A stretch of 64,000 nucleotides of DNA from a virus (Duplodnaviria > Heunggongvirae > Uroviricota > Caudoviricetes). The notes under the pieces were generated by a model. The model searched no databases. It was not told the DNA's origin and worked only from the letters and a program-made list of their open reading frames with translations. The position numbers were made by a program, and so were the translations under genes. Location of the stretch: the IMG/VR virus record IMGVR_UViG_3300042895_002216. One strand, given 5' to 3'. Position 1 is the first letter of the stretch; each line of letters begins with the position of its first letter. Positions 693 through 60,025 of the stretch are shown here, piece after piece.

Positions 693-1145
693 ATGGATGA
701 ATTTTTAGCAATGATTAAATTATTTGCAGGCGGATACGAGCCAATCGGCTGGATGTACTGCGATGGTCGAGCGTTATCAATTAGAAACTACACTGCTCTG
801 TATGCAGTAATCGGAACAAATTTCGGCGGAGACGGTGTCAATACCTTCTGTTTGCCTGACCTTAGAGGTCGAGTTGCAGTTGGTGCAGGTTCAGGTAACG
901 GGCTGACTCCAGTTAATACTGGCGAAAAGGGTGGAACTGAAGCAAATGTTCTAACTCAACACCATGTTAACATTAATACCTTAACTAAAAATTTCGATAT
1001 CAAAGAAACTGGTAGAGATGGAGTTCCTAGTGTTGTAACAAGCGTAACTGCTTCAGAAGAATGGGCACCAATTAATAATCGCCAACCTTACCTAGGTATA
1101 AACTACATTATTTGCGTAGAAGGAGTATTTCCATCTAGAAGCTAA
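693..1145 (+). CDS. phage tail collar domain protein (T4 gp12-like Collar/MdpB domain)
   Basis: KLFAGGYEPIGWMYCDGRALSIRNYTALYAVIGTNFGGDGVNTFCLPDLRGRVAVGAG matches the conserved phage tail-collar fibre domain signature. An ATAAATAAT motif lies about 30 nt upstream. Confidence 0.7.
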   Translation: MDEFLAMIKLFAGGYEPIGWMYCDGRALSIRNYTALYAVIGTNFGGDGVNTFCLPDLRGRVAVGAGSGNGLTPVNTGEKGGTEANVLTQHHVNINTLTKNFDIKETGRDGVPSVVTSVTASEEWAPINNRQPYLGINYIICVEGVFPSRS

Positions 1146-1158
1146 TATAACTAGAGCA

Positions 1159-1461
1159 ATGAAGCACATTAAACTATTTGAAGAGATTAACCGAGAAGAC
1201 GAAGACGAATTATCTGCATTGGGCTTTGACACAGACGACCTTAAACTTAGACGATTTGCTCAACAAGTTTCGGACGAGATCCTTGACGAATACGATTATG
1301 CGGTAGACTCAGGCCGAATATCTGCTAGAGAATATTCCCCCGAAGAAATGTACAAGTACGTAAAGGAACTTTGTTCAGACAACGATATCACAGCAGACGA
1401 AGTAATTGCTGACTTTGAATGGCGCTCGATTACTTGGGAACTTGGGCTTGGAAACATATAA
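1159..1461 (+). CDS. leader-family small acidic protein (MKHIKLFEE N-terminus)
   Basis: 100-aa ORF starting MKHIKLFEEINREDEDELSALGFD. The N-terminus is shared with more than 15 paralogous leaders elsewhere in the window. Confidence 0.6.
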   Translation: MKHIKLFEEINREDEDELSALGFDTDDLKLRRFAQQVSDEILDEYDYAVDSGRISAREYSPEEMYKYVKELCSDNDITADEVIADFEWRSITWELGLGNI

Positions 1462-1481
1462 ACCTTATAATTTAACAACTA

Positions 1482-1877
1482 ATGAAAATTGAAGTATCTA
1501 CTGGCGAGATCTTAGATAAACTTTCTATCCTAGAAATTAAGCTTGAGCATATCTTAGACCCAGTTAAACGAAATAACGTGTTACAGGAATATGTAATACT
1601 GGTAGCAGCCGCCGAAGAAATATATGATGCAACTCTTGAAACAGAAGAGCTTAGGGTTCTTTATTTAGATTTACTAAATATTAATAAAACACTATGGAAC
1701 ATCGAAGATCAAATCAGAGAATGCGAACGAGATGAAAGTTTCGGGTCTGATTTTATTGAACTTGCAAGGTCTGTGTACTACACAAACGATGACAGAGCTG
1801 AGGTAAAGAAACAGATTAATGCGTTAACCGGTTCTAAATTAGTTGAAGAAAAATCTTACCAAGACTATCAGAACTAA
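1482..1877 (+). CDS. hypothetical protein
   Basis: 131-aa ORF in tight spacing after the previous gene. Followed by the hairpin terminator at 1936-1966. Confidence 0.5.
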   Translation: MKIEVSTGEILDKLSILEIKLEHILDPVKRNNVLQEYVILVAAAEEIYDATLETEELRVLYLDLLNINKTLWNIEDQIRECERDESFGSDFIELARSVYYTNDDRAEVKKQINALTGSKLVEEKSYQDYQN

Positions 1878-1935
1878 CAAGCGTTTGTGATCGATTAAAT
1901 CAACAGCAACCTTTACGATTTCATTCGTATTGCTA

Positions 1936-1966
1936 ATGGGCCTCAGGAAACTGTAGCCCATTTTTT
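1936..1966 (+). terminator. intrinsic terminator
   Basis: ATGGGC-ctcaggaaactgta-GCCCAT hairpin followed by TTTTTT. Confidence 0.6.
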
Positions 1967-2150
1967 AGTATAATAATCCTAACAGCAAGCCCTCTGCTTA
2001 GCGCTGAGTAAGGATCGAAGACGGGGATAGCCTCTTGACCGTTAGGTTAGAGTACTTCGGTACTCTTTAGTCAATGCGCACTACGCCCACCGAATCGTGT
2101 GTCGGCACAGTTTGTACGTTCTGGGGGTAATACAAAAACGTACATTTTTA

Positions 2151-2250
2151 GTCAGGAGTCCATTGGTTGGAAGCACCTCCCCAAGGTTGAGTAGCGGTAA
2201 GGCCGACTCTTTATGGCAAAGCGGTAACAGGTTCGAATCCTGTCCTGACT
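2151..2250 (+). ncRNA. atypical tRNA-like element, identity unresolved
   Basis: 5' GTCAGGA pairs with 3' TCCTGAC, and a canonical T-arm (CAGGTTCGAATCCTG) is present. About 71 nt of non-cloverleaf sequence lies between them. Acceptor and T-arm are identical to the element at 53354-53472. Upstream (2020-2150) are strong hairpins including a GAGTAC-UUCG-GTACTC tetraloop. Confidence 0.4.
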
Positions 2251-2369
2251 TCTAAAATTAAAAAGTAGAGTATGAATCGTAGACAGGCAATAGCAAAGCT
2301 TATTATTATTTTAGCTAGCGTTACTATATCCGTATGGGCAATCGCTCAGCTCTTAATTGCTGTACAATA

Positions 2370-2801
2370 ATGGAAACACTTCAAATATGGACGGACGGTA
2401 GTTCGTTAGGAAATCCTGGCCCAGGCGGTTGGGGCGTAGTCATGAAATTCCGAGGCAAGACCATGGAATTATCTGGATCTACACCGGCCACGACAAACAA
2501 TCGAATGGAACTCACTGCCGTGGTTGAGGCTCTTGAAACAATTCCCAAGACAAAGTATCCAGTCAAGATCGAGTCAGACTCTAAATACGTGGTTGACTCA
2601 ATCTCTAAGGGTTGGGTTGACAATTGGGCAAGGAAGCCTGATTTCGCAGGTAAAAAGAACGAGGATCTTTGGAGAAGATACTTGATGGTTGCTCCTAACT
2701 TCGACTTGACTATCAGTTGGGTTAAGGGTCATAACGGCCATCCTGAAAACGAGCGTTGCGATTACTTAGCAACGACCGCAGCAAAAAATCAGAAACTTTA
2801 A
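2370..2801 (+). CDS. rnhA: ribonuclease HI
   Basis: WTDGSSLGNPGPGGWG, TNNRMEL, DSKYVV and VKGHNGHPENERCDYLA match the RNase H catalytic motifs (D-E-D-D). Start chosen at METLQIW. Confidence 0.85.
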   Translation: METLQIWTDGSSLGNPGPGGWGVVMKFRGKTMELSGSTPATTNNRMELTAVVEALETIPKTKYPVKIESDSKYVVDSISKGWVDNWARKPDFAGKKNEDLWRRYLMVAPNFDLTISWVKGHNGHPENERCDYLATTAAKNQKL

Positions 2802-2923
2802 ATTATGTTAGATATGGAAAATTACCCAAAATGGTTGAATAACCTAATCTATTTCTTTGCAGGAATAGGCTTCTCTCAAATCTTGATCAGAGTATTAGAT
2901 TGGTACGTAGGATAAATAATCCT

Positions 2924-27614: not shown

Positions 27615-29537
27615 TTATTTTTTTATGATTTTAGTAGAGTTAATTTGATCAACTGCCTGTAAAGAAGCAACGTATAATCCGCTAGTTAACTGATTAATAT
27701 TGGAAGAGTATACGTATTTTCCAGCTGGCATGTCTTGATCAAGTATAACAAATTGTTCTGATCCGTTTAGGTCAACGATTACTAACTTAACCATTCCGCT
27801 ATTCTTAACTGAGAAGTCAAAGCTTATCTCTCCAGTAGTTGGATTGGGAAATGCGGTAATTTCAAAGTTATCCAATTGACCAGAAGGTCCAGCCATTTTA
27901 GCAACGATTAAGATGCCGTTTGCTGCGGTGATTGATAAATCCCTAGATTGATTGTCTCCTGAGAATTTTCTAGAAGTATACAAAGGCGATGCCTCCCAAT
28001 CAATTTGAGGTTTAAGTGCGATAAATCTCAATTTAAAAACTTCATAATTATCTGGAATCATGTAGCTTTTGTTAGCTGATGGATCGTAACCGGCCCATTC
28101 GATAATTCCGCCAGTTGGATTGAATGAAGACATCCACTGCATTGATTTAGCAGAGTTAGTAATGTCTTTAAATTCCAATAAGGTCTGATCGTATAACATT
28201 GCTAATTGAAGAGACGAAATATCCTTTCCTCCAGTTTTAACAGTAACCGGTATTTCTACTAGATTTCCTGAATTTACAGAAAGATTAGGAAGATTAACTT
28301 CAATTGAGCTCGTTGGAAAATCGTATTCAACTGTCATATCAATTACGTTTTCAGTTTGAGCTGGGGTTCCAGCCGGTGGATTGATCATTACTTCAATTGG
28401 CGTTAAACGAGCCATGTTGTAACCCGTACCGTTTGCATCTCCTGGAACAAGTACGTAATATTGAACTGAATCAGGTTGTCCTGGTAAAATGTCGTAGTAG
28501 AAGTTTGTTACTCCAGCATAAGTTGAAGTATAGTTAGTCGATGGAGATCCTGTGATTGTTGTGTATTGGGCAGCAGTAAAGAACTTAACATCCTCAACGG
28601 CATTAGGCCATTCAGTGAATCTTCCAGCAATTCTACCAAATACTCCGTATGCATCAGTTATTGTTACGTTAGTTGAACCGTTAACATCTGCTGTATAGAA
28701 GTCGAATCCGGAAGGAGTCGCTGACCCTAACACCCATTGATTAATTAATTGAGCATCTGCTGTTGATATAACGTTTCCTACCGTCATCGTATCACCTTTA
28801 ATTGCAAGGCGTACATCATAATAAGTAGTATCAATAATTTCGCTAAATGCAAAATTTCCACTTAGGTCAGTTACGTACGTATCATGAGTTCCCCAAGTAC
28901 CTCCAGCTTTTACCTTTTTCTCAAGAGCTAAAGTTAAGTTCTTTGCTCCAGTTCCAGTAACGTTTGTAAATTTACCATGGAAGTCTAAAGTAGGCTGTTC
29001 CCATACACCGCCGTAGCTATGCTTGCTTAGAGTAGTATCTAAACCTGTCTGAGATGCAGCGAGTGTAGTAAAAGAAGCTGCGCCACTAAACGTAAGAGCA
29101 CTGATTGAGGGTAACGCATAAAACGATGCAGCTGCAACGTGAGTAAAGGTTATTTCAAAGGTTTCACCGTCCGCTAGAGTATAAGTACTGCTGTTTCCAG
29201 TATACACTAATGAAAGGGTTACGTAACCGGTAGCATTACTATCTACTGACTGTAAATATAAGTTAGTAGGCGATCCAACTAGCGCAACTGATGCACTAGC
29301 AAATGCATCCTTATCGTAAAATATTCGAGTTTGAATACCTGTGTATTTTGAGATAGTTGCATTCTTTAGCGTGATTCTGGCTTTGGACTGACCTAGCGTA
29401 CTTGTACCAACTTGATATGTCGTATCAATGATTGTCCAAATTCCTGCGCCTGGGGCAGGAGGTCCACTTTGAGCATAAACTCCAGTAGAGAGTGCGCACG
29501 TGACTAGTGCGAATAGAATAAAGATTATTTTTTTCAT
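27615..29537 (-). CDS. secreted protein with type IX secretion system C-terminal sorting domain
   Basis: Signal peptide MKKIIFILFALVTCALSTGVYAQ. The last ~80 aa (FPNPTTGEISFDFSV..VKLVIVDLNGSEQFVILDQ..LTSGLYVASLQAVDQINSTKIIK) matches the Por secretion tail (T9SS CTD) pattern. Confidence 0.7.
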   Translation of the reverse strand: MKKIIFILFALVTCALSTGVYAQSGPPAPGAGIWTIIDTTYQVGTSTLGQSKARITLKNATISKYTGIQTRIFYDKDAFASASVALVGSPTNLYLQSVDSNATGYVTLSLVYTGNSSTYTLADGETFEITFTHVAAASFYALPSISALTFSGAASFTTLAASQTGLDTTLSKHSYGGVWEQPTLDFHGKFTNVTGTGAKNLTLALEKKVKAGGTWGTHDTYVTDLSGNFAFSEIIDTTYYDVRLAIKGDTMTVGNVISTADAQLINQWVLGSATPSGFDFYTADVNGSTNVTITDAYGVFGRIAGRFTEWPNAVEDVKFFTAAQYTTITGSPSTNYTSTYAGVTNFYYDILPGQPDSVQYYVLVPGDANGTGYNMARLTPIEVMINPPAGTPAQTENVIDMTVEYDFPTSSIEVNLPNLSVNSGNLVEIPVTVKTGGKDISSLQLAMLYDQTLLEFKDITNSAKSMQWMSSFNPTGGIIEWAGYDPSANKSYMIPDNYEVFKLRFIALKPQIDWEASPLYTSRKFSGDNQSRDLSITAANGILIVAKMAGPSGQLDNFEITAFPNPTTGEISFDFSVKNSGMVKLVIVDLNGSEQFVILDQDMPAGKYVYSSNINQLTSGLYVASLQAVDQINSTKIIKK

Positions 29538-33558: not shown

Positions 33559-33646
33559 GGAGGATTGGCAGAGTGGTCGATCGCGGCAGTCTTGAAAACT
33601 GTTGTACCGCAAGGTACCGTAGGTTCGAATCCTACATCCTCCGCCA
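33559..33646 (+). tRNA. tRNA-Ser (anticodon TGA), class II with long variable arm, CCA encoded
   Basis: Acceptor GGAGGAT/ATCCTCC. Anticodon loop CTTGAAA. Variable hairpin GTACCgcaaGGTAC. T-arm GGTTCGAATCC. Confidence 0.8.
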
Positions 33647-33662
33647 AAAAAATCAATAAACA

Positions 33663-33851
33663 ATGGGACTATTCGGAGCAATCGCTAATATAGCAAGCGC
33701 AACAGTAAAAACAGCATTGTCACCAATCGCAGTCGTAAAGGATGCAGTTGACGTGGCAACCGGTGGCGAAGCTACCGCAACAAAGGATTTAATAAACTCG
33801 GTCGGCGAAGACTTATCTGACGCAGTCGATGAGGTAGTTGATCCTTATTAA
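33663..33851 (+). CDS. small hypothetical protein
   Basis: 62-aa A/V/D-rich ORF. Confidence 0.35.
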   Translation: MGLFGAIANIASATVKTALSPIAVVKDAVDVATGGEATATKDLINSVGEDLSDAVDEVVDPY

Positions 33852-33865
33852 AAAAATAACAGTAT

Positions 33866-34564
33866 ATGTTAATTAAAAATCAAACGCCATACCTTGGCAA
33901 AATTCAGTTGAAGTTCGAGAGATTTCCTCACTACACTGGCAAAACTAAATTAAATAAGATCCACTTGGATCTGGGATTTACTAAGTTAGTAAGCCGAATC
34001 CGACCTGAAAGAGATTTGGAAGGTTGGGCTGTAAATCCTGAATGTATTAAACAAATTGAAGCAACTACTGGGCTAAAGGTAGGAGTTCATAAGTTCGGAC
34101 CAGACGATGAGTACTCATTACCCAATTCATGCATGAATCCAGACGGAGTTTACGTTGGATCAATTGAAGAAGGTTGGTGGTACTACAACAATGGCCTCAG
34201 AGCAACAAAGGGATCTCATCCTCATACTGCATGGAGTAAGAAGGCAAAGCAGTGGATTGGTTATTCTCACCGTGCTTCTTGTGCATTCGGAAAAGGCGAT
34301 AAACTATTTGATGCTAAATGGAAACCTGCTGAACAAGACCTTCCTCAATACGAAAAGTTCTACGGCAAGCACCTGGACTCGTATTATAAAGAGTGCGAAG
34401 AATGGGCAAAGAGTACCTCTGACCATAAAGCGTCAGAAGAAGAAATGACCCTTGCTGGTTGGGCAGTAGATCATATTCCTTTTAGACTACGTGGTGCTAA
34501 GACAATTCATTCGTATGAAGATGCTTACAAGGCAGCAGTTAACTTTGCAAAATACGTATCGTAA
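33866..34564 (+). CDS. hypothetical protein
   Basis: 232 aa, W/Y/K-rich. No clear motif. Confidence 0.5.
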   Translation: MLIKNQTPYLGKIQLKFERFPHYTGKTKLNKIHLDLGFTKLVSRIRPERDLEGWAVNPECIKQIEATTGLKVGVHKFGPDDEYSLPNSCMNPDGVYVGSIEEGWWYYNNGLRATKGSHPHTAWSKKAKQWIGYSHRASCAFGKGDKLFDAKWKPAEQDLPQYEKFYGKHLDSYYKECEEWAKSTSDHKASEEEMTLAGWAVDHIPFRLRGAKTIHSYEDAYKAAVNFAKYVS

Positions 34565-34821
34565 TGGCAAAAGGCTCTATATTAAATGCACTAAAGAACG
34601 AGGCGGACATGAAACGTCTCGTTCTTGAGTTTACTGAGAAATTAGAACATGACCCGTACCAACCGGGGCTAGTTCATCCGGAAGTCTATCCGGACGATGT
34701 TCAGGAAGTACTTGAAGATCTACTGTGGATTAGGGGATTCGATGAAGCGACTATCAGAGTTAGAAAGAATCCAGATGGAGTATCTGTATCAGTAGAAGTT
34801 TTGGGCAGAACTAAGGGATAA
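34564..34821 (+). CDS. hypothetical protein
   Basis: 85 aa. ATGA-coupled. Confidence 0.45.
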   Translation: MAKGSILNALKNEADMKRLVLEFTEKLEHDPYQPGLVHPEVYPDDVQEVLEDLLWIRGFDEATIRVRKNPDGVSVSVEVLGRTKG

Positions 34822-34842
34822 ATAATAAAAATAAGATCCCTA

Positions 34843-35394
34843 ATGAAACTTAAGAGATTTTCACAATTTGTAAAAGAGAGCTTGATAACAGAATCTTCGT
34901 CAGTTATTGAAGTTGAAGAAAATATATTCTTAATAGACGAAATAATCTACATAATTTGGCTTGTTACACTAGACGTATCTTTCGATTATGAGCCTGACGA
35001 TAGCAGTGTCGGATTCGTTGGCGGCTATTCAGTTGATGATGTTGACTTTGATGGAGTAGACGGAGTGTATAAAGTAACTGATCCTTCAGTAATTTCGCAG
35101 GTTAAAGCCATGCTAGATTCCCCTGAAGCTGAAGAGTTAAAAAGCATGGGATTTGAAGGAGCTGATGAATATGCAGCAATTGGCGATTTAATATACGATG
35201 CAGAGCAAGAAGAAATTACAGGAGAAGAGCTCAAGGACTTCATTAATAAATTCAAAGCTCTTTACGATTCAAATACTCTAGTCGATTTAACTGGTACTTT
35301 CAAAAAAAGAACTGACTCTGCTCTCGATAGAGCGGTTGAGGATTTTGAACCTGATGAGCCTGACTACGATGATTACGACGATGATCGTTATTAA
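34843..35394 (+). CDS. leader-family acidic protein
   Basis: MKLKRFSQFVKESL leader, C-terminal D/E/Y-rich tail. ATAAATAAT at 34818-34826. Confidence 0.6.
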   Translation: MKLKRFSQFVKESLITESSSVIEVEENIFLIDEIIYIIWLVTLDVSFDYEPDDSSVGFVGGYSVDDVDFDGVDGVYKVTDPSVISQVKAMLDSPEAEELKSMGFEGADEYAAIGDLIYDAEQEEITGEELKDFINKFKALYDSNTLVDLTGTFKKRTDSALDRAVEDFEPDEPDYDDYDDDRY

Positions 35395-35420
35395 TAAATA
35401 AACAAAAATTACTTTTTAAA

Positions 35421-35984
35421 ATGAAACTTAAAAGATTCACACAATTTGTTAACGAAGCAAAGATTAACGAAGCTCAAATCAAAGATAAAACTATCGTTGC
35501 TAAGCTTGATAGAATTCACGAAATCAAAACTCGATTAAAAGAATTGACAGCTGAAACAAAAGCTATCAATACTGAGCTTGGTGCATTTGATGCAACAATG
35601 AAGCCGATCTTTGATGCAATGAAAGTCCTAAATGATAAGCTTGCAACAACTGAAAAATACGTTATCAAGATTTCAAGATACGGCGGATCTTCTGAAAACC
35701 CATCTTATGCTAAAGCTGTAGAGCAGGCACTAGGGTTAGTCGATGCTGCTGCTCAAGCAATTATCAACGAATGTGTTAGACAAAACACAGCAATATCAAA
35801 CGTAAAACACTCATACGATATTGAAAAACTAGATGAATCTAAATTAACTGATAAAGCTAAAGCGATCGTTGCTAGGTTGTCTGGTAAAATCACAGCAATC
35901 GTTGCCAAGTTAAAGTCTTTCTTTGAGTCTAAATTCTCTAAGATCGATCAAGCAAACGAAAAACTTGCAGCAATGATAAAGTAA
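35421..35984 (+). CDS. leader-family protein
   Basis: MKLKRFTQFVNEAK leader. ATAAATAAA at 35394-35402. Confidence 0.6.
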   Translation: MKLKRFTQFVNEAKINEAQIKDKTIVAKLDRIHEIKTRLKELTAETKAINTELGAFDATMKPIFDAMKVLNDKLATTEKYVIKISRYGGSSENPSYAKAVEQALGLVDAAAQAIINECVRQNTAISNVKHSYDIEKLDESKLTDKAKAIVARLSGKITAIVAKLKSFFESKFSKIDQANEKLAAMIK

Positions 35985-36016
35985 TTTTTAGTAAAGGGAA
36001 ACCTTTTTTAAAAAGT

Positions 36017-36040
36017 TGGTATAATAACTAGATAAATAAC
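36017..36040 (+). promoter_or_regulatory. tandem promoter-like motifs (TTGGTATAATAAC + ATAAATAAC) ahead of the tRNA island
   Basis: Both recurrent motif classes occur back-to-back about 100 nt upstream of a short leader ORF and the first tRNA. Confidence 0.5.
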
Positions 36041-36138
36041 TAGACAAAAAAATTAAACTCGTGCAAATAACTACGAACATATCAAAAAATACTCAAAACT
36101 GGAATCAGTATCCGGCAGGCACAGTTAATGTGATTGCA

Positions 36139-36192
36139 ATGGAGACGATTAAAGATTTTGGGGTATTGCGAGGTTCTAGTGGTATAAGTTAA
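36139..36192 (+). CDS. 17-codon leader ORF upstream of tRNA island (METIKDFGVLRGSSGIS)
   Basis: ATG..TAA ORF between the promoter motifs and the terminator at 36217-36247. Codons 2-9 (GAG ACG ATT AAA GAT TTT GGG GTA) are each decoded by a tRNA in the downstream island. Confidence 0.3.
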   Translation: METIKDFGVLRGSSGIS

Positions 36193-36216
36193 GAAATTAC
36201 ATAACTAACAACAACG

Positions 36217-36247
36217 AACCTCGAACCTAAAAAATTCGAGGTTTTTT
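36217..36247 (+). terminator. intrinsic terminator between leader ORF and tRNA-Phe
   Basis: ACCTCGAA-cctaaaaaa-TTCGAGGT hairpin followed by TTTTTT. Confidence 0.6.
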
Positions 36248-36256
36248 GTTTTAGCA

Positions 36257-36332
36257 TGGTGAGGTAGCTCAGATGGTAGAGCACAGGACTGAAAATCCTG
36301 GTGTCGGCGGTTCGATCCCGCCCCTCACCACC
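36257..36332 (+). tRNA. tRNA-Phe (GAA), CCA encoded
   Basis: Acceptor GGTGAGG/CCTCACC. Anticodon loop CTGAAAA. T-arm GGTTCGATCC. Confidence 0.85.
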
Positions 36333-36411
36333 AACAAAAAAATGAATAAGAATATGAAACGTAAACGCTAAAGGCCCAGTGACTCCCAGAGTTACAGGTC
36401 TAAATACACAG

Positions 36412-36485
36412 GTCTTCGTAGCTCAGTTGGTTAGAGCACCTCACTTTTAATGAGGGAGTCACAGGTTCGAGTCCTGTCGGGGACA
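36412..36485 (+). tRNA. tRNA-Lys (TTT)
   Basis: Anticodon arm CCTCA-CTTTTAA-TGAGG. T-arm AGGTTCGAGTCCT. Confidence 0.8.
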
Positions 36486-36491
36486 CTAAAC

Positions 36492-36568
36492 TGGAATATA
36501 GCTCAATTGGTTAGAGCATTCGCCTGATACGCGAAAGGTTATAGGTTCGATTCCTATTATTCCAACCA
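36492..36568 (+). tRNA. tRNA-Ile (GAT), CCA encoded
   Basis: Anticodon loop CTGATAC. T-arm AGGTTCGATTCCT. Confidence 0.8.
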
Positions 36569-36573
36569 AACAT

Positions 36574-36651
36574 TGCGGGATGCGTAGAAAGCGGTTATCT
36601 CGTCAGTCTCATAAGCTGAAGTTCCCGGTTCGAGTCCGGGTCCCGCAACCA
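36574..36651 (+). tRNA. tRNA-Met (CAT), elongator-type
   Basis: Anticodon arm TCAGT-CTCATAA-GCTGA. T-arm CCGGTTCGAGTCCGG. Confidence 0.75.
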
Positions 36652-36660
36652 AAAGAATAC

Positions 36661-46383: not shown

Positions 46384-47052
46384 ATGAAAATTACATTACA
46401 GCCTCATCAGCGAATATGGTTCACGTCAGATACTCACTACAAACACTCAAATATTTGTAGAGGAACGTCTAATTGGCCGGCCGAGAGTAAGACCAGAGAT
46501 TTCGATACCCTGGATAAAATGAATGATACGATTGTTAACAATATCAATCACCTAGTCAGCGAAGACGATATTCTTTTCCACTTAGGAGACTGGTCGTTCG
46601 GAGGATTTGATAACATCCAGGAGTTCAGAGACAGGTTGCTCTGTAAGAACATTCATTTGGTTCTAGGTAATCACGACCAGCACATCGAGAATGACAAGGG
46701 AGGAGTCAAGGCTCTATTTGCATCAGTGAATCATTACGTTAGACTGGAACTTACTGTTCCAAACGTGCCGAACGAAATAAATCCAGCGAAGACTATTAAG
46801 AAAACGTTTGTGCTATGTCATTACCCAATCGCAAGTTGGCACGATATGAACCGTGGAGTAATTCAATTACATGGTCACGTTCACTTAGGCCCACACAATA
46901 AATTACATGCAGGTAAAGCAATGGACGTTGGCATGGACGGCAACTTCATGGACCCATATTCTCTTCAAGAAATCGCAAAGATTATGAGAGACCGTCCAGT
47001 TAAGTGTTTGGTTTTACCGAACGATCACCATGAAACAAACGAAGGAAGATGA
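46384..47052 (+). CDS. calcineurin-like metallophosphoesterase
   Basis: GDWSFGG, GNHDQH and HGHVHLG motifs. Confidence 0.65.
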   Translation: MKITLQPHQRIWFTSDTHYKHSNICRGTSNWPAESKTRDFDTLDKMNDTIVNNINHLVSEDDILFHLGDWSFGGFDNIQEFRDRLLCKNIHLVLGNHDQHIENDKGGVKALFASVNHYVRLELTVPNVPNEINPAKTIKKTFVLCHYPIASWHDMNRGVIQLHGHVHLGPHNKLHAGKAMDVGMDGNFMDPYSLQEIAKIMRDRPVKCLVLPNDHHETNEGR

Positions 47053-47486
47053 TACAGAATACACACAATAAAATCGGCGAGGGTAATCGACTCCTTGCGC
47101 AATTCATGGGAGGCACAATTGTCTCTAGTGAAACCTACGAAATGCCACACGGCTCAAACGGCAAAGGCGTCTTTGAAAAATGGGGTGGACTCTCTGGAAT
47201 TCCCAGTCACGATCAGGAATTGGCTGCACTTGGAATATTTAGATATGAAACCTCATGGAGCTGGATTTTTCCAGTAATCGAAAAGATCGAGAGTCTTGGT
47301 TTCTGCGTCAGCATTCACCGTAGAGGAATTCAAATTATTAAGTACGACAAGGATCGAAGATTTGAAGCGACTGACCTAATTATCGATGAAGACTTCTTAG
47401 ATGATTATTCTGGAGATGTTAAGCGAATTGCTGCATGGGACTGTTGCGTTTCTTTTGTTGACTGGTACACAAAGAGGAGCCAATAA
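47049..47486 (+). CDS. hypothetical protein
   Basis: 145 aa, ATGA-coupled. Confidence 0.45.
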   Translation: MIQNTHNKIGEGNRLLAQFMGGTIVSSETYEMPHGSNGKGVFEKWGGLSGIPSHDQELAALGIFRYETSWSWIFPVIEKIESLGFCVSIHRRGIQIIKYDKDRRFEATDLIIDEDFLDDYSGDVKRIAAWDCCVSFVDWYTKRSQ

Positions 47487-47872
47487 TGGAATTAACGGGA
47501 CCCTCTAAACTAGTAGTCGCATCCAGTCCAATACACGGACTTGGAGTATTCGCAACGCAATCTATTAGCCCAGGCGAGATTATTGAAGAATGTCATTTCA
47601 TAACATTCGATGCGACATCAGATGATCCTATTTTTAATGATTATCGATTCATAGTCGGCCGTTCTGAGAAATTAGGCTGCGTAGAGTATGGCGTTCTTCT
47701 TGGATTCGGAGGAATCTACAATCACAGTGAAACTCCAAATATAAATTGGAGACATGATACTGAAAAGAATTGTTTTACGTTCTTTGCACTAGTCGATATT
47801 AATCCAGGAGACGAATTGTGCTCGTATTACGGAGGGCCTGAATATTGGAAATCAATTGGTATGGAAATTTAG
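47486..47872 (+). CDS. SET-domain protein (putative protein-lysine methyltransferase)
   Basis: GLGVFATQSISPGEIIEEC ... YNHSETPNINW ... INPGDELCSYYG match the SET-domain core motifs (GxG, NHS..PN, ELxxxY) in a minimal ~128-aa protein. Confidence 0.65.
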   Translation: MELTGPSKLVVASSPIHGLGVFATQSISPGEIIEECHFITFDATSDDPIFNDYRFIVGRSEKLGCVEYGVLLGFGGIYNHSETPNINWRHDTEKNCFTFFALVDINPGDELCSYYGGPEYWKSIGMEI

Positions 47873-49461: not shown

Positions 49462-50199
49462 ATGACAGCACCATTTGAATTTTACGAAGTAGGCGGAAAG
49501 GTAAGAGACGAGATCTTGGGACTTCAGTCCAAAGACGTTGATTACGTAGCCGTGCCGAAAGCAACTCTGCTTGAGGAATTTCCTGAGGCGGCTGATATGT
49601 TTGACTTGCTAGTTGACTACTTAACTCGTGAAAAATTCCAGATATTCCTGATCACCAAAGAATGTTACACAATCAGAGCAAAATTTCCAGACGGACATAA
49701 GTACCAAGGAGTTGCTGATTTTGTAATGTCTAGAAAAGAGACTGGATACGTGCCGTTTACCAGAACTCCGATCATTAAGCCTGGAACCCTATTCGACGAT
49801 TTACAGAGAAGAGACTTTACTCTTAATGCCCTGGCAAGAGAAGCGGACGGCTCGATCATTGACTACTTTGATGGGCTGACTCACTTGAAGCTTGGGCTAT
49901 TAGTAACGCCATTACCTTGCGAGGAAACGTTTCACGATGATCCTTTGAGAATCTTGAGAGCTATTAGATTTTCAATCACTAAAGGATTTACTATCCCTGA
50001 GGAAATGTCTCAAGTAATAAAGCACTACGATTACGAAGTTAAGATGTGTGTAGTATCAGCTGAGAGAATCAGGGAAGAGCTCTTTAAGTGTTTCAAACAT
50101 GACACTCATGCAACGATACTTAAGTTATCAGAGTACCCTTTCCTTATGGAATACATTTTTAGAACACAAATCTGGTTAAAACCAACAATGGAAGAATAA
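49462..50199 (+). CDS. tRNA nucleotidyltransferase (CCA-adding) head domain protein
   Basis: FYEVGGKVRDEILGLQSKDVDYVA is the polymerase-beta-type head-domain signature of class II CCA-adding enzymes. Only 245 aa. Confidence 0.7.
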   Translation: MTAPFEFYEVGGKVRDEILGLQSKDVDYVAVPKATLLEEFPEAADMFDLLVDYLTREKFQIFLITKECYTIRAKFPDGHKYQGVADFVMSRKETGYVPFTRTPIIKPGTLFDDLQRRDFTLNALAREADGSIIDYFDGLTHLKLGLLVTPLPCEETFHDDPLRILRAIRFSITKGFTIPEEMSQVIKHYDYEVKMCVVSAERIREELFKCFKHDTHATILKLSEYPFLMEYIFRTQIWLKPTMEE

Positions 50200-50753
50200 T
50201 GGAAGCAACAATAAATGGAAGAATAATGGAAGCAAAAATAAACTGGGTTCTAGACCAACATAGAGACACGAATCACATGTACGATAAGTACTTGCCTTAT
50301 GAATTTCATTTACGTATGGTCGTTGAAGTTGCAAAGAAATTTCAATCTTTAATTACGTATGAGAAAGATTTTGAGCATGTACTACTTGGAGCATGGGGCC
50401 ATGATCTTATTGAAGACACCAGAGTTTCATACAATGATGTTAAGCAGGCGCTTGGAGAAATGGCAGCAGATATTGTCTATGCGTGCTCAAACGAGAAAGG
50501 CAAGAGTCGTAATGATCGGGCTAACTACCGATACTACGATGGAATCAGAACAACGCCGTATGCGATATTCGTTAAGTTATGCGACCGAATTGCAAACGTG
50601 CAGTACTCAAAAATGTCTGGCAGCAGAATGTTCGAGATGTACAGAAAAGAAAATCCCGAATTCATGCAGCAATTAGGCTGGACGGCTGAAGAAAAATATC
50701 TTCATGAGTATGCCAATATGTTTGTATACTTAAGTAAATTATTCGAAGACTGA
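50199..50753 (+). CDS. HD-domain phosphohydrolase
   Basis: GAWGHDLIEDT is an HD motif. The protein lies immediately after the CCA head-domain gene, making a split two-ORF arrangement. Confidence 0.7.
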   Translation: MEATINGRIMEAKINWVLDQHRDTNHMYDKYLPYEFHLRMVVEVAKKFQSLITYEKDFEHVLLGAWGHDLIEDTRVSYNDVKQALGEMAADIVYACSNEKGKSRNDRANYRYYDGIRTTPYAIFVKLCDRIANVQYSKMSGSRMFEMYRKENPEFMQQLGWTAEEKYLHEYANMFVYLSKLFED

Positions 50754-50772
50754 AAATAAAAAAATTAATATA

Positions 50773-51975
50773 ATGGAAAATCAAAACAGCGTATGTTACA
50801 TTGGAAAAGTAACAGAAATCAAGGCAATCGAAGGAGCTGACAATATTGAGTTAGCGATCATCGGTGGATGGAATTGTATTACTAAAAAAGGACTACACAA
50901 GGCGGACGAATTTGTTATCATTGCAACAACTGATGCAGTTATTCCGGAAGAGTTATCCGAAAAATTGGGAGTAACCGGTTACCTGCGTAAGGGCAATCGA
51001 GTTAGAACAGTTAAGTTGAGAGGAGTTTACAGTGAGTGTCTAATCATTCCGCTTAATGTGCTTGAAGGTTCAGAAGAAATGAAGATCGGAGTTAGTAAAC
51101 AGCCTTGGGGCGATCAATTACAGTTGGGCCCTTATGACGATGCACTCGTTATTGAAGAAGGAGTTGACGTTAGTGAGATGCTTGGAATTTTCAAGTACGA
51201 ACCGCCAGTTAGACAGGTCCAACTTGCTTCAGGTAAAAAGGTTCGTTATCAAGACAATCCAAACTTTCATGTCTACTACAAGTTTCCTAACTTGAAAAAT
51301 GTTAGTGGAATGTTTACTGAAGAGGATATTGTGCAAATCACGCGTAAGATCCACGGTACGAATGCACGATACGGTATAGTTAAGAAGAATCGCTTGTCCT
51401 TCATGGATAGGATTAAAAAATTCTTTGGATTCGCCGGAGAGCTCTTTGAGTACGAGTACGTTTATGGATCTCATAATGTCGAGAAGGGTTCTGATTCTCA
51501 AGGGTTCTATTCAACTGATGTCTGGAGAACAATTGCCGAGAAGTACGATATCAAGAACAGGTTGCTTACCTTAGCAAAAACTAAAAATAGGATTGGTGAA
51601 CTTGGAGCTGGTATTGTAATTTACGGAGAAATTTACGGTGCAGGTATTCAAAAGAATTACGAGTACGGTCTGACTGATATTGAATTCGTTGGATTCGATG
51701 CCACAGTAAACGGCAAATACGAGTCCACTATTTACACTGAATTCCTTTTCAAAGAAGCGCTAGAGTTACCTCACGTTGGAGTCCTATACACAGGACCGTG
51801 GTCACAAGAGACACAAGACCAGTTCGTCTTTGGTAATATGATCAAAGGAACTAAGGTGCCGCATGAAGGCATTGTTATTAAGCACATAAGCGGTGAGCGT
51901 AATCGAGTAGCAAAGGTAATTAATCCAGACTATTTGATTTACGGAGAAAAGCACGATATTGGAGACTCACATTAA
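50773..51975 (+). CDS. ATP-dependent RNA/DNA ligase-family nucleotidyltransferase (RNA-ligase-like)
   Basis: Candidate motif I KIHGTN, motif IV EGIVIK and motif V-like VAKVINP in the expected order and spacing. Confidence 0.5.
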   Translation: MENQNSVCYIGKVTEIKAIEGADNIELAIIGGWNCITKKGLHKADEFVIIATTDAVIPEELSEKLGVTGYLRKGNRVRTVKLRGVYSECLIIPLNVLEGSEEMKIGVSKQPWGDQLQLGPYDDALVIEEGVDVSEMLGIFKYEPPVRQVQLASGKKVRYQDNPNFHVYYKFPNLKNVSGMFTEEDIVQITRKIHGTNARYGIVKKNRLSFMDRIKKFFGFAGELFEYEYVYGSHNVEKGSDSQGFYSTDVWRTIAEKYDIKNRLLTLAKTKNRIGELGAGIVIYGEIYGAGIQKNYEYGLTDIEFVGFDATVNGKYESTIYTEFLFKEALELPHVGVLYTGPWSQETQDQFVFGNMIKGTKVPHEGIVIKHISGERNRVAKVINPDYLIYGEKHDIGDSH

Positions 51976-51989
51976 TAAAACAAATACAA

Positions 51990-52463
51990 ATGGAAGAAGA
52001 AAAATTACCGATCAGAATCTATTTAGATGACGTTCGAACACCAATTGAACAGGACTGGATAGTTGTTAGATCATACCAGGAGTTCAAGGACAAGGTGATG
52101 GAAATTGGATTAAAGAACATTCACATGATCTCATTGGATCACGACTTGGGTGACTCAGCTATGTCAGAGTACTTCACGAATGTAAGTCCTAACTATAAGC
52201 TAGACTACACGAACATTACTGAAAAAACTGGAATGGATTGCACTAAGTGGTTGGTGAATCAGTTCTACGACGAGAATCCAAAGAGAATTGAGATGAGTCG
52301 TTTCGATAAGCGTAATGTGCCGATTCGGTTTCCAGCAGTCTACGTACACTCAGCGAATCCAATTGGATCAGCGAACATGATGGGTTACATTAATAACTTC
52401 TTCATGAATGAGGGAGAACCTCAAAACTGCGTGAGAGTTCAGATACCTCACACGGTAATGTAA
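51990..52463 (+). CDS. hypothetical protein
   Basis: 157 aa. Confidence 0.45.
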   Translation: MEEEKLPIRIYLDDVRTPIEQDWIVVRSYQEFKDKVMEIGLKNIHMISLDHDLGDSAMSEYFTNVSPNYKLDYTNITEKTGMDCTKWLVNQFYDENPKRIEMSRFDKRNVPIRFPAVYVHSANPIGSANMMGYINNFFMNEGEPQNCVRVQIPHTVM

Positions 52464-52484: not shown

Positions 52485-53027
52485 ATGAAAGTTGTACAAG
52501 AATTTCCTAACGGGCTTATATCAGTTTATCCATCCGTGTTTGGCGATGAAAGAGGATTTTTTCTAGAATCGTTTAATCAGCTGAAATATTCTGAATTTCT
52601 TAATGAGCATTCATTTGTTCAGGATAATTTATCTAGATCCAAAAAAGGAGTCCTTCGTGGATTGCATTTTCAAGCTCCACCGTTTGATCAAGGAAAATTG
52701 GTTCAGGTAATTACAGGAAGCGTGTTGGATGTTGCGGTAGATATTCGTCGAGACTCTCCAAGCTACGGTAAATCCTTTCAAGTTGTATTAAATACGACTG
52801 ATCGCAATCAACTTTGGATTCCACCAGGCTTTGCGCATGGCTTCGTTAGCCTAGAAGACGACACTATTTTTTCCTATAAATGCACAAACGGTTATTCAAA
52901 AGAACATGAAGGCTGTATATTATGGAATGATGCGGACTTAGCGATTGATTGGGAAATTGAAAATCCTATCATTTCGGATAAAGATCAATTGGGAACCCCG
53001 TTTAAAGAGTTAATCAGCCCATTCTAA
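52485..53027 (+). CDS. rmlC: dTDP-4-dehydrorhamnose 3,5-epimerase
   Basis: FGDERGFF, GVLRGLHFQ and LWIPPGFAHGF are cupin RmlC hallmarks. Confidence 0.8.
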   Translation: MKVVQEFPNGLISVYPSVFGDERGFFLESFNQLKYSEFLNEHSFVQDNLSRSKKGVLRGLHFQAPPFDQGKLVQVITGSVLDVAVDIRRDSPSYGKSFQVVLNTTDRNQLWIPPGFAHGFVSLEDDTIFSYKCTNGYSKEHEGCILWNDADLAIDWEIENPIISDKDQLGTPFKELISPF

Positions 53028-53119: not shown

Positions 53120-53200
53120 GCCCTCTTGGCGGAATTGGTAGACGCGCTAGACTTAGGATCTAGTCTTAGGGTGAGAGTTCGAGTCTCTCAGAGGGTACCA
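53120..53200 (+). tRNA. tRNA-Leu (TAG), CCA encoded
   Basis: Leu-type D-arm GGCGGAATTGGTAGACGC. Anticodon arm CTAGA-CTTAGGA-TCTAG. 9-nt variable region. TGGGTATAATAAC at 53088-53100. Confidence 0.75.
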
Positions 53201-59083: not shown

Positions 59084-59153
59084 GGTCAGTTTGGTCGTGG
59101 AGGCCGTCAGGTCTGCAAAATCTGAGGAGTTGGTTCGATTCCAACATTGACCT
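59084..59153 (+). tRNA. tRNA-Cys (GCA)
   Basis: Anticodon arm CAGGT-CTGCAAA-ATCTG. T-arm GTTGGTTCGATTCCAAC. Confidence 0.75.
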
Positions 59154-59161
59154 CAAAAACT

Positions 59162-59245
59162 GGAAGAGTAATTCAGCTGGCGCTGGACCTAGTCTTGAAA
59201 ACTAGTGGTACCTTCGGGTATGGGGATCGATACCTCACTCTTCCG
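59162..59245 (+). tRNA. tRNA-Ser (TGA), class II, unusual T-loop
   Basis: Acceptor GGAAGAG/CTCTTCC. Anticodon arm CTAGT-CTTGAAA-ACTAG. Variable hairpin TACC-TTCG-GGTA. T-loop ATCGATA is non-canonical. Confidence 0.65.
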
Positions 59246-59260
59246 CTCGTTCTTTTACAT

Positions 59261-59338
59261 GGTAGACGTAGCTCAGTTGGTTAGAGCGCCTGATTGTGGT
59301 TCAGGAGGTCGTCGGTTCGATCCCGATCGTTTACCCCA
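59261..59338 (+). tRNA. tRNA-His (GTG) with encoded G-1 and C73, CCA encoded
   Basis: The extra 5' G pairs opposite discriminator C. Anticodon arm CCTGA-TTGTGGT-TCAGG. Confidence 0.85.
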
Positions 59339-59341
59339 ACT

Positions 59342-59417
59342 GCCTCTGTGGGTAAACTGGTAAAGCCGCTTGACTTAGGATCAAGAGATTTTGTGGGTTC
59401 GAATCCCACCAGAGGTA
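59342..59417 (+). tRNA. tRNA-Leu-like (TAG) with short variable region
   Basis: Anticodon arm CTTGA-CTTAGGA-TCAAG. Discriminator A. Variable region only ~7 nt. Confidence 0.55.
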
Positions 59418-59424
59418 CAAAAAT

Positions 59425-59505
59425 GCTCCCGTGGTGAAACTGGTAAACACGCTCGGCTTAAGATCGAGTGCGCAATGCTTGTGGGTTCGAGTCCCACCGG
59501 GAGTA
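59425..59505 (+). tRNA. tRNA-Leu (TAA), class II
   Basis: Anticodon arm CTCGG-CTTAAGA-TCGAG. 12-nt variable arm. T-arm GTGGGTTCGAGTCCCAC. Confidence 0.75.
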
Positions 59506-59510
59506 CTAAT

Positions 59511-59598
59511 GGAGAGTGAAGCAACAAGGTGTTGTCGCCGCCTGCTAAGCGAGCGGTTCCCGAAAGGGAATGGGGATCGAGACCTCCACTCTCCGCCA
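59511..59598 (+). tRNA. tRNA-Ser-like (GCT), class II, CCA encoded
   Basis: Acceptor GGAGAGT/ACTCTCC. Loop CTGCTAA with a weak anticodon stem. Variable hairpin TTCCC-GAAA-GGGAA. Same unusual T-loop (ATCGAGA) as 59162. Confidence 0.55.
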
Positions 59599-59599
59599 T

Positions 59600-59673
59600 A
59601 GTCCAGTAGCTCAGTGGAATAGAGCAACCGCCTTCTAAGCGGTAGGTCGCAGGTTCGAGTCCTGCCTGGATTA
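59600..59673 (+). tRNA. tRNA-Arg (TCT)
   Basis: Anticodon arm ACCGC-CTTCTAA-GCGGT. T-arm GCAGGTTCGAGTCCTGC. Confidence 0.8.
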
Positions 59674-59697
59674 CAAATTATTTAGTACAATATAGCT

Positions 59698-59928
59698 ATG
59701 GAAGAAATAACAAACGCAGAAAGAGAATTCATGTTCTATAAGATTGGAACAGCTGGATCGTTTCACACAGCCTTGATTCAGACAATTATGAAGGCTGATA
59801 TTCGTAATCAGGCTAAGCTTGCACTAGGTTTTCCCGAAGATGTTCAAGTGGTTCAACGTTTTCAAAACGAAAGTGGCTACTGGGAAGGTCTGCAAGAGCG
59901 CTGGAAAGCTGCACATAACCGAAACTAA
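59698..59928 (+). CDS. hypothetical protein
   Basis: 76-aa ORF between tRNA genes. Confidence 0.4.
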   Translation: MEEITNAEREFMFYKIGTAGSFHTALIQTIMKADIRNQAKLALGFPEDVQVVQRFQNESGYWEGLQERWKAAHNRN

Positions 59929-59937
59929 TTAGTACCT

Positions 59938-60010
59938 GCCCCGGTAGTTCAATGGATCAGAACACACGGCTACGGACCGTGAGATGGGGGTTCGAATCCC
60001 TCCTGGGGTA
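59938..60010 (+). tRNA. tRNA-Arg (ACG)
   Basis: Anticodon arm CACGG-CTACGGA-CCGTG. T-arm GGGGGTTCGAATCCCTC. Confidence 0.8.
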
Positions 60011-60025
60011 CTTAACTTAATCAAC

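Follow-up and report, generated by a model that had tools for sequence, protein, structure and literature searches.

A minimal SET-domain protein, probably an active lysine methyltransferase, encoded as an accessory gene in a probable Mahaphage-like megaphage

Does a bacteriophage encode a working protein lysine methyltransferase of the SET type, and what could such an enzyme modify in a bacterial host? The question is raised by one gene in the virus record IMGVR_UViG_3300042895_002216 (Caudoviricetes) from IMG/VR, of which a stretch of 64,000 nucleotides, hereafter the window, was analyzed. In eukaryotes, the methylation of protein lysines by SET enzymes is characteristic of how chromatin is controlled; among viruses such methylation has, to our knowledge, been demonstrated only for the chlorovirus protein vSET. 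A preliminary description of the window had read an open reading frame (ORF) of 128 amino acids (aa) as a minimal SET-domain methyltransferase, pointing to three core motifs and likening its size to that of the smallest viral SET proteins. We conclude, with a probability of about 0.75, that this gene encodes a minimal SET protein lysine N-methyltransferase dependent on S-adenosylmethionine (SAM), that the enzyme is active, and that a Mahaphage-like megaphage with a probable Bacteroidota host has it as an accessory gene.

The SET gene is the final member of a compact three-gene block (46384-47872) in which every junction overlaps (Table 1). Its ATG shares one base with the TAA of the preceding gene (TAATG) and is preceded by the Shine-Dalgarno-like sequence AAGAGGAG. 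SET homologs start with the same M-E-L. The ORF list shows no rival reading frame of at least 40 aa across 47486..47872 on either strand. The translation, MELTGPSKLVVASSPIHGLGVFATQSISPGEIIEECHFITFDATSDDPIFNDYRFIVGRSEKLGCVEYGVLLGFGGIYNHSETPNINWRHDTEKNCFTFFALVDINPGDELCSYYGGPEYWKSIGMEI, contains GLGVFA, YNHSETPN and ELCSYYG, all three as first described, and the comparison of size was also correct (128 aa against 119 aa in vSET). The protein is strongly acidic, with an isoelectric point (pI) of 4.5 and a net charge of -11; the family median pI is 5.1. The GC content of the gene (0.395) and its GC content at third codon positions (0.31) match those of the window (0.393 and 0.34 ± 0.06), so it is not a recent foreign insert, and recent horizontal acquisition was rejected for lack of any compositional sign.

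The SET domain profile (Pfam PF00856) matched residues 18-116 over its whole length (positions 1-105 of 105) with an E-value of 1.2e-12; its score of 48.6 bits is well above the curated cut-off of 22.4. The SET core fills the entire protein; the Pfam scan detected neither pre-SET or post-SET zinc modules nor a second domain. In a sequence search of the PDB the best match was vSET of PBCV-1 (119 aa, E 5.1e-12), followed by Set7 of S. pombe (E 7.5e-10) and PFL0690c of Plasmodium (E 2e-5). No NCBIfam model matched, and the PHROGs gave one weak match, to a family without assigned function. An AlphaFold2 (AF2) model built from a 65-sequence alignment reached a predicted local distance difference test (pLDDT) score of 89.4 and a predicted template modeling score (pTM) of 0.81, and is all-beta with one C-terminal helix. 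Foldseek placed vSET (3kma) at the top of the PDB matches, with a probability of 1.00, a template modeling (TM) score of 0.86 normalized by target, a root-mean-square deviation of 2.4 Å and 31% identity; the top three were the minimal SET structures vSET, Set7 and PFL0690c. In total 291 PDB entries matched at E ≤ 1e-3, and the best 50 of these 291 are all SET-domain enzymes with a probability of 1.00. The 128-aa protein is thus predicted to have the SET beta-fold, a beta-clip with a putative pseudoknot.

Residue conservation was analyzed in 65 single-domain homologs of 116-137 aa that are 34-93% identical to the query. Residues G20, E34, G73, N79, E110 and Y115 are invariant among them, and S14, G18, F22, I27, G75, Y78, H80, N85, F99 and I105 are conserved in at least 90%. 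In the closer homologs Y53 and Y120 are conserved in at least 90% and W88 is invariant; the family consensus includes YGxxxYW. The SAM-binding motifs GxG (G18-L19-G20) and (Y/F)NH(S/C) (Y78-N79-H80-S81) are both present, and the C-terminal ELxxxY motif, which includes the catalytic tyrosine, is found as E110-L-C-S-Y-Y115-G. In SET enzymes, the GxG loop binds SAM, and a strand of the pseudoknot is made up by the NH(S) segment, which also touches SAM. The ratio of nonsynonymous to synonymous substitution rates (dN/dS) was 0.107 against a 90%-identical homolog and 0.073 against an 80%-identical one, which shows that purifying selection acts on the gene. The methyltransferase assignment of the preliminary description was thus borne out by the profile match, homology to solved structures, predicted fold and residue conservation. 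It had named structure prediction as a check, and the model superposes on vSET as given above; it had regarded loss of the conserved Tyr and His-Asn residues in homologs as a sign against the assignment, and these residues were found to be retained.

Judged from its residues, the SET protein is likely to be catalytically active. In the mechanism that we propose, the GxG loop, Y78-N79-H80 and the YYG segment near the C-terminus would together make up the pocket for SAM, with the NHS and ELxxYY segments threaded into the SET pseudoknot. The substrate lysine would come in from the opposite face through a narrow channel, whose walls are probably formed by Y53, Y115 and the C-terminal YW helix, and would be methylated in line with the methyl group of SAM, with the invariant Tyr115 as the putative catalytic residue. 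On our own numbering of the alignment, Y115 is the putative counterpart of vSET Tyr105. From the alignment, the YW pair of the PEYWKS flank probably completes the lysine channel. Since the protein has no targeting or zinc-cluster modules, specificity would have to lie in the core, possibly in a homodimer like that of vSET.

The known system closest to the window protein is vSET (A612L; PDB 1n3j, 3kma), which is its best PDB match in both sequence and structure. Both are virus-encoded single-domain SET proteins without pre-SET or post-SET regions, and the GxG, NHS, ExxxSYG and C-terminal YW elements recur in both. They differ in the i-SET region, which is longer in the window protein (residues about 42-70), and presumably in charge, with a computed pI of 8.6 for vSET. 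As regards orthology, the two are about 31% identical, and the clade of the query does not contain vSET in a neighbor-joining tree of 130 columns that has no support values. vSET trimethylates lysine 27 of histone H3 (PMC3089700). However, vSET is encoded by a giant virus that infects a eukaryotic alga, whereas the window SET is a bacteriophage gene whose host would have no nucleosomal H3; because of the phage context and the probable Bacteroidota host, nucleosomal H3 is an implausible substrate. Set7 (5h6z) and PFL0690c (4rz0) are likewise minimal SET cores and rank second and third by sequence and fold, but both are cellular proteins from eukaryotes, 146-169 aa long, with histones as their known or presumed substrates.

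Small SET proteins also occur in organisms without eukaryotic chromatin: Go1-SET of Methanosarcina mazei methylates MC1-alpha, and cpnSET of Chlamydia methylates Hc1 (PMC3980110). A Methanosarcina homolog with 34% identity to the window SET was retrieved with the family pattern (locus L168). In contrast to the window SET, which is viral, Go1-SET and cpnSET are cellular genes. One match that already has a phage label is the UniProt entry A0A6J5L8Y2, 'SET domain containing protein [uncultured Caudovirales phage]', found in BFVD; it has the same length (128 aa), 40% identity and a TM score of 0.86, but auto-annotated phage SET proteins of this type have other phage lineages as their genomic background.

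The family of the window SET is large. When 1.84 billion cluster representatives were searched exhaustively with phmmer, 2325 clusters matched at E ≤ 1e-3 and 360 at E ≤ 1e-10, the matches listed being mostly 115-170 aa long with a few tandem or fused forms. A profile search recovered at least 1784 clusters (90% identity) at E ≤ 1e-10, of which the best 120 are unnamed or labeled 'hypothetical', 'uncharacterized' or 'SET domain-containing protein'. Using one peptide pattern, we retrieved 348 IMG/VR viral contigs of up to 245 kb, in which the SET copies are 38-48% identical to the window SET. A similar pattern gave at least 592 matches in bacterial and archaeal genomes, in a scan that used a 16-sequence alignment; identity there does not exceed 41%, with a range of 32-41% over the best 80 copies. 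These cellular matches include Saprospiraceae, Chitinophagales, Flavobacterium, the candidate phyla radiation (CPR), Legionellales and Methanosarcina. Isolate phages yielded only remote SET-like genes, in Stenotrophomonas phages Yut2 and Ps15 and Synechococcus phage Sf-CH1b. In the neighbor-joining tree, which comprises 128 sequences, the window clade lies inside a viral and metagenomic clade of 59 leaves that includes a 735-kb phage and has no leaves from bacterial genomes. This topology suggests a clade of minimal SET proteins that circulates among phages and is distinct from the sampled bacterial copies.

Fusions are found among some relatives (P0009, P0010, P0040, P0062) and involve a PhyH dioxygenase, thioredoxin, a class-I methyltransferase (Methyltransf_24), radical SAM with DUF5825, or a second SET domain in tandem. 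They may point to peptide-modification contexts or be gene-calling artefacts. As a functional clue they were rejected, being heterogeneous, without a consistent signal and in part possibly artefactual. Our literature searches turned up no work on a phage SET protein, apart from a brief reference to one in Stenotrophomonas phage Ps15; SET domains and methyltransferases are not mentioned in the main text of the huge-phage paper (PMC7162821), and the words 'phage' and 'virus' are absent from a review of bacterial SET proteins (PMC3980110).

The ORFs of the window are tightly packed and mostly co-oriented. It contains 26 tRNA genes, all on the plus strand, within 33559-39216, 53120-53200 and 59084-60011. 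An array of 19 at 36258-39216 covers most amino acids, a second cluster consists of six, and three of the genes are tRNA-Met(CAT). A T4-type topoisomerase II is split into large and medium subunits separated by four unrelated ORFs. Its medium subunit is 50-58% identical to proteins of uncultured-phage genomes of 462-642 kb, but only 37-38% identical to those of the best isolate phages (Xanthomonas, Chryseobacterium). An endolysin (PHROG) and a phage-lysozyme domain protein are also encoded. PHROG annotation of ten large ORFs, carried out in search of virion genes, returned the endolysin and one family without known function; genes for capsid or terminase were not identified within the 64 kb, and a megablast of the region against known phages gave no nucleotide match. 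Among 50,697 phage records, the sole clear SET homolog (42% identity) lies in the 735-kb genome. From these features we infer that the window derives from a Mahaphage-like megaphage; the phage context implied by the preliminary description agrees with the tRNA genes, the topoisomerase matches to megaphages and the SET homolog of the 735-kb phage.

Mahaphage genomes of 634 kb and above have Bacteroidetes as the predicted hosts of their replication (PMC7162821). On the minus strand, the window encodes a 640-aa protein with a C-terminal sorting domain of type IX secretion (Por_Secre_tail), and the best bacterial SET matches come from Saprospiraceae and other Bacteroidota. From these three observations, the host probably belongs to Bacteroidota. 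The presence of Por_Secre_tail, a Bacteroidota-specific export signal, inside a phage genome makes it a useful host indicator.

The gene order around SET was compared with that of related metagenomic contigs. The phosphoesterase gene at the head of the block and the following 145-aa ORF overlap by 4 nt. The 145-aa ORF is conserved at 43-92% identity in related contigs, always after the phosphoesterase; its product had no match in Pfam, PHROG, NCBIfam or the PDB sequence search, and its AF2 model (pLDDT 79) had no Foldseek match in the PDB. The trio of phosphoesterase, 145-aa ORF and SET is kept in four close relatives with SET proteins 80-93% identical (loci L001-L005), while the flanks differ: the window lacks counterparts of several L001 genes, namely those for NADAR, nicotinate phosphoribosyltransferase (NAPRTase) and nucleoside deoxyribosyltransferase and four that lie downstream, and the SPFH/Band-7 gene lies upstream of SET in L001 and downstream in the window. 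In the more distant loci L171-L175, where the 145-aa protein is 54-81% identical, the pair of phosphoesterase and 145-aa ORF is kept but the fetched flanks contain no SET, as confirmed by a six-frame hidden Markov model search of these flanks. Thus, the region is a mosaic in which SET is accessory, and the 145-aa protein goes with the phosphoesterase rather than with SET. The 145-aa ORF was accordingly rejected as a partner or substrate of SET, since it stays with the phosphoesterase in relatives without SET.

Upstream of the block lies a gene similar to phosphoribosyl pyrophosphate (PRPP) synthetase (45085-46014). In L001 (3075-8883) it is followed by NADAR, 171-aa, NAPRTase-like and nucleoside deoxyribosyltransferase genes, which in the window are replaced by an 88-aa putative membrane ORF (46037-46303). 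The gene set of the close relatives presumably resembles a phage module for reconstitution of nicotinamide adenine dinucleotide (NAD). A scan for promoters and terminators around the block gave nothing above shuffled expectation. Just 5' of the block, an 11-bp perfect palindromic hairpin (AAAAAGGAACC-N5-GGTTCCTTTTT, 46342-46368) is terminator-like, such sites being no more frequent than the shuffled expectation.

Neighbors of SET were clustered over four genes on each side at 158 loci. At 54 of 80 viral loci, a gene for an SNF2-family helicase (~584 aa) lies directly 3' of SET on the same strand; the pairs mostly overlap by 1 or 4 nt and are kept across SET divergence down to 33% identity. The link may represent a functional pair or merely an inherited gene order. 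In other lineages SET lies directly after PhoH, on a 188-kb contig, or 5' of HSP20, and in the 735-kb phage it stands alone among genes of the opposite strand. A conserved functional partner of SET was rejected, the strongest link (SNF2, 54 loci) being limited to one syntenic lineage. In the 735-kb phage, SET is separated by one gene from a putative PhoH-like ORF of 307 aa, judged by eye (Walker-A GESGVGKS). The two loci with such neighbors are L170 (LR756501.1; 5820-6743, minus strand) and L176 (4245-5000, plus strand); PhoH would be a second recurrent neighbor of SET in unrelated lineages.

Two alternatives concern the nature of the gene itself. The SET fold might be kept without enzymatic activity, as a SAM- or peptide-binding module or as a neutral passenger, and the heterogeneous fusions among relatives (PhyH, thioredoxin, class-I methyltransferase, radical SAM) would be in line with this. 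We consider it very improbable, as all catalytic and SAM-binding residues are conserved, with N79 and Y115 invariant, and the family persists at the same length over thousands of clusters; a neutral passenger is excluded by the dN/dS of about 0.1. Still less credit is given to a bacterial origin of the window, for instance as a genomic island in which SET would be an ordinary bacterial gene. Bacteroidota and CPR genomes often carry minimal SET genes, most of the large ORFs have no PHROG match, and neither a capsid nor a terminase gene was identified in the 64 kb. However, dense co-oriented genes, 26 tRNA genes, a topoisomerase II closest to those of megaphages, the endolysin and the phage-lysozyme domain all argue for a phage, as do the SET orthologue in the 735-kb phage and the closer relation of the window SET to viral copies than to any sampled bacterial one.

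The other alternatives concern the target of an active, phage-encoded SET methyltransferase. The preliminary description had named host nucleoid proteins, translation proteins and phage structural proteins as possible targets; all of these are speculative, and the analysis separates them only by faint pointers to a basic substrate associated with DNA. By analogy, the target could be a small basic protein, most likely a nucleoid-associated or other DNA-associated protein of the host or phage; we rank it first because the enzyme is acidic, its relatives methylate chromatin proteins, and SET is linked to SNF2 in one lineage, and we hold it tentatively. Just as speculative is the broader proposal that minimal SET proteins form a widespread phage clade that methylates a bacterial nucleoid, DNA-transaction or defence protein after infection. 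Several points weigh against these proposals. An acidic pI is a weak indicator of a basic target, the SNF2 gene is not adjacent to SET in the window, and the SET-SNF2 link is confined to one lineage in which up to four genes on each side are largely syntenic. Among the 158 loci no SET neighbor is common to all lineages, and the context gives no consistent clue to the target; in the window, SET is surrounded by genes for tRNAs, RNA repair and NAD-related functions, and a target in translation or counter-defence would suit these just as well. Finally, the neighbor-joining tree has no bootstrap support, and its sequence sets were pre-selected for similarity to the query. The same enzyme might instead act on the translation apparatus (ribosomal proteins, elongation factors) or on an RNA-processing protein, by which the phage would reprogram host translation. 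Consistent with this are the 26 tRNA genes, the CCA-adding enzyme, HD protein and RNA ligase downstream together with the cREC_REC domain, the Thg1 and YqeY genes of the relative L001, and the fact that an acidic enzyme suits basic ribosomal proteins too; ribosomal proteins and eEF1A are methylated by eukaryotic SET enzymes. We regard this as rather unlikely, since the neighborhood is a reshuffled mosaic, SET is missing at the same spot in relatives, and other phage lineages have SET beside SNF2, PhoH and HSP20 rather than translation genes. Moreover, we know of no prokaryotic SET enzyme that acts on ribosomal proteins, PrmA and EftM being Rossmann-fold enzymes. A role as a counter-defence effector appears more doubtful again: lysine methylation of host immunity proteins or of phage proteins would block attack by ubiquitin-like conjugation or acylation. 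A Tad6-like Thoeris-inhibitor domain at 33866-34564, the PRPP-synthetase-like gene, which in relatives is flanked by NADAR and NAPRTase genes, and the patchy, accessory distribution of SET, as typical of such genes, are in its favor. This is evidence of context only; no homology to known anti-defence proteins was found, with no anti-defence library (e.g. PADLOC) scanned, and no SET-domain anti-defence protein is known to us as a precedent.

Taken as a single gene call, the window SET is an unsurprising domain assignment of the kind already made by automated pipelines. Members of the family from uncultured phages and bacteria are already auto-annotated in databases, and the size of this annotated family lowers the novelty of the window SET. 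What the analysis adds is the frequency with which uncultured phages carry minimal SET genes that are intact and under selection: they occur in hundreds of IMG/VR contigs, megaphages included. If a host nucleoid or defence protein is indeed modified, this would be a new mechanism of host takeover in bacteria and the first phage-encoded protein lysine methylation system for that purpose. It would be the bacterial-virus equivalent of the 'epigenetic' host shut-off by vSET and of archaeal Go1-SET, and the family would supply compact, easily expressed lysine methyltransferases with new specificities.

Table 1. Coordinates of the SET gene, its motifs and other features (positions in the window unless a locus is named)
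Feature	Position	Strand	Evidence or remark
SET-domain gene	47486..47872	+	ATG start, 128 codons, TAG stop; ORF list
Ribosome-binding region and start codon	47472..47488	+	AAGAGGAG, 6 nt spacer, ATG; sequence reading
Motif I, GLGVFA, residues 18-23	47537..47554	+	Sequence reading; aligns to vSET GYGVFA
Motif II, YNHSETPN, residues 78-85	47717..47740	+	Sequence reading; aligns to vSET FNHSKDPN
Motif III, ELCSYYG, residues 110-116	47813..47833	+	Aligns to vSET EITISYG; Tyr115 codon 47828-47830
C-terminal flank PEYWKS, residues 118-123	47837..47854	+	Short helix (AF2); YW aligns with vSET DYWLS
Calcineurin-like metallophosphoesterase, 222 aa	46384..47052	+	First in block; Pfam Metallophos E 1.2e-8; phrog_547 phosphoesterase E 1.4e-42
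145-aa ORF	47049..47486	+	ORF list; co-oriented with SET, overlaps both neighbors
SPFH/Band-7 protein, 477 aa	47947-49380		Long Ala/Glu/Lys/Gln-rich stretch after Band-7 domain
CCA-adding/poly(A) polymerase head-domain protein, 245 aa	within 49462-52463	+	RNA-repair-like run
HD-domain protein, 184 aa	within 49462-52463	+	RNA-repair-like run
RNA ligase with PHA02142 OB domain, 400 aa	within 49462-52463	+	RNA-repair-like run
cREC_REC cyclic-phosphate-processing receiver domain protein, 157 aa	within 49462-52463	+	RNA-repair-like run
dTDP-4-dehydrorhamnose 3,5-epimerase	52485-53027		E 8e-66
T4-type topoisomerase II large subunit (GyrB-like), 611 aa	14002-15837	+	
T4-type topoisomerase II medium subunit (GyrA-like), 453 aa	18722-20083	+	
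640-aa protein with cohesin domain and type-IX-secretion C-terminal sorting domain (Por_Secre_tail)	27615-29537	-	
PA14/GLEYA domain protein	40240-41109		
ClpP protease	41139-41804		E 5.6e-58
SET-SNF2 pair, example from locus L007	SET 777-1142; SNF2 1142-2902		IMG/VR loci L007-L009, L010-L089

The region around SET is a mosaic, with genes for host takeover, anti-defence and RNA repair (Table 1). A 232-aa protein at 33866-34564 on the plus strand matches Pfam Tad6, a type I Thoeris inhibitor (E 5.5e-22), and is likely encoded by an anti-defence gene. Downstream of SET, an RNA-repair-like run occupies 49462-52463 on the plus strand.

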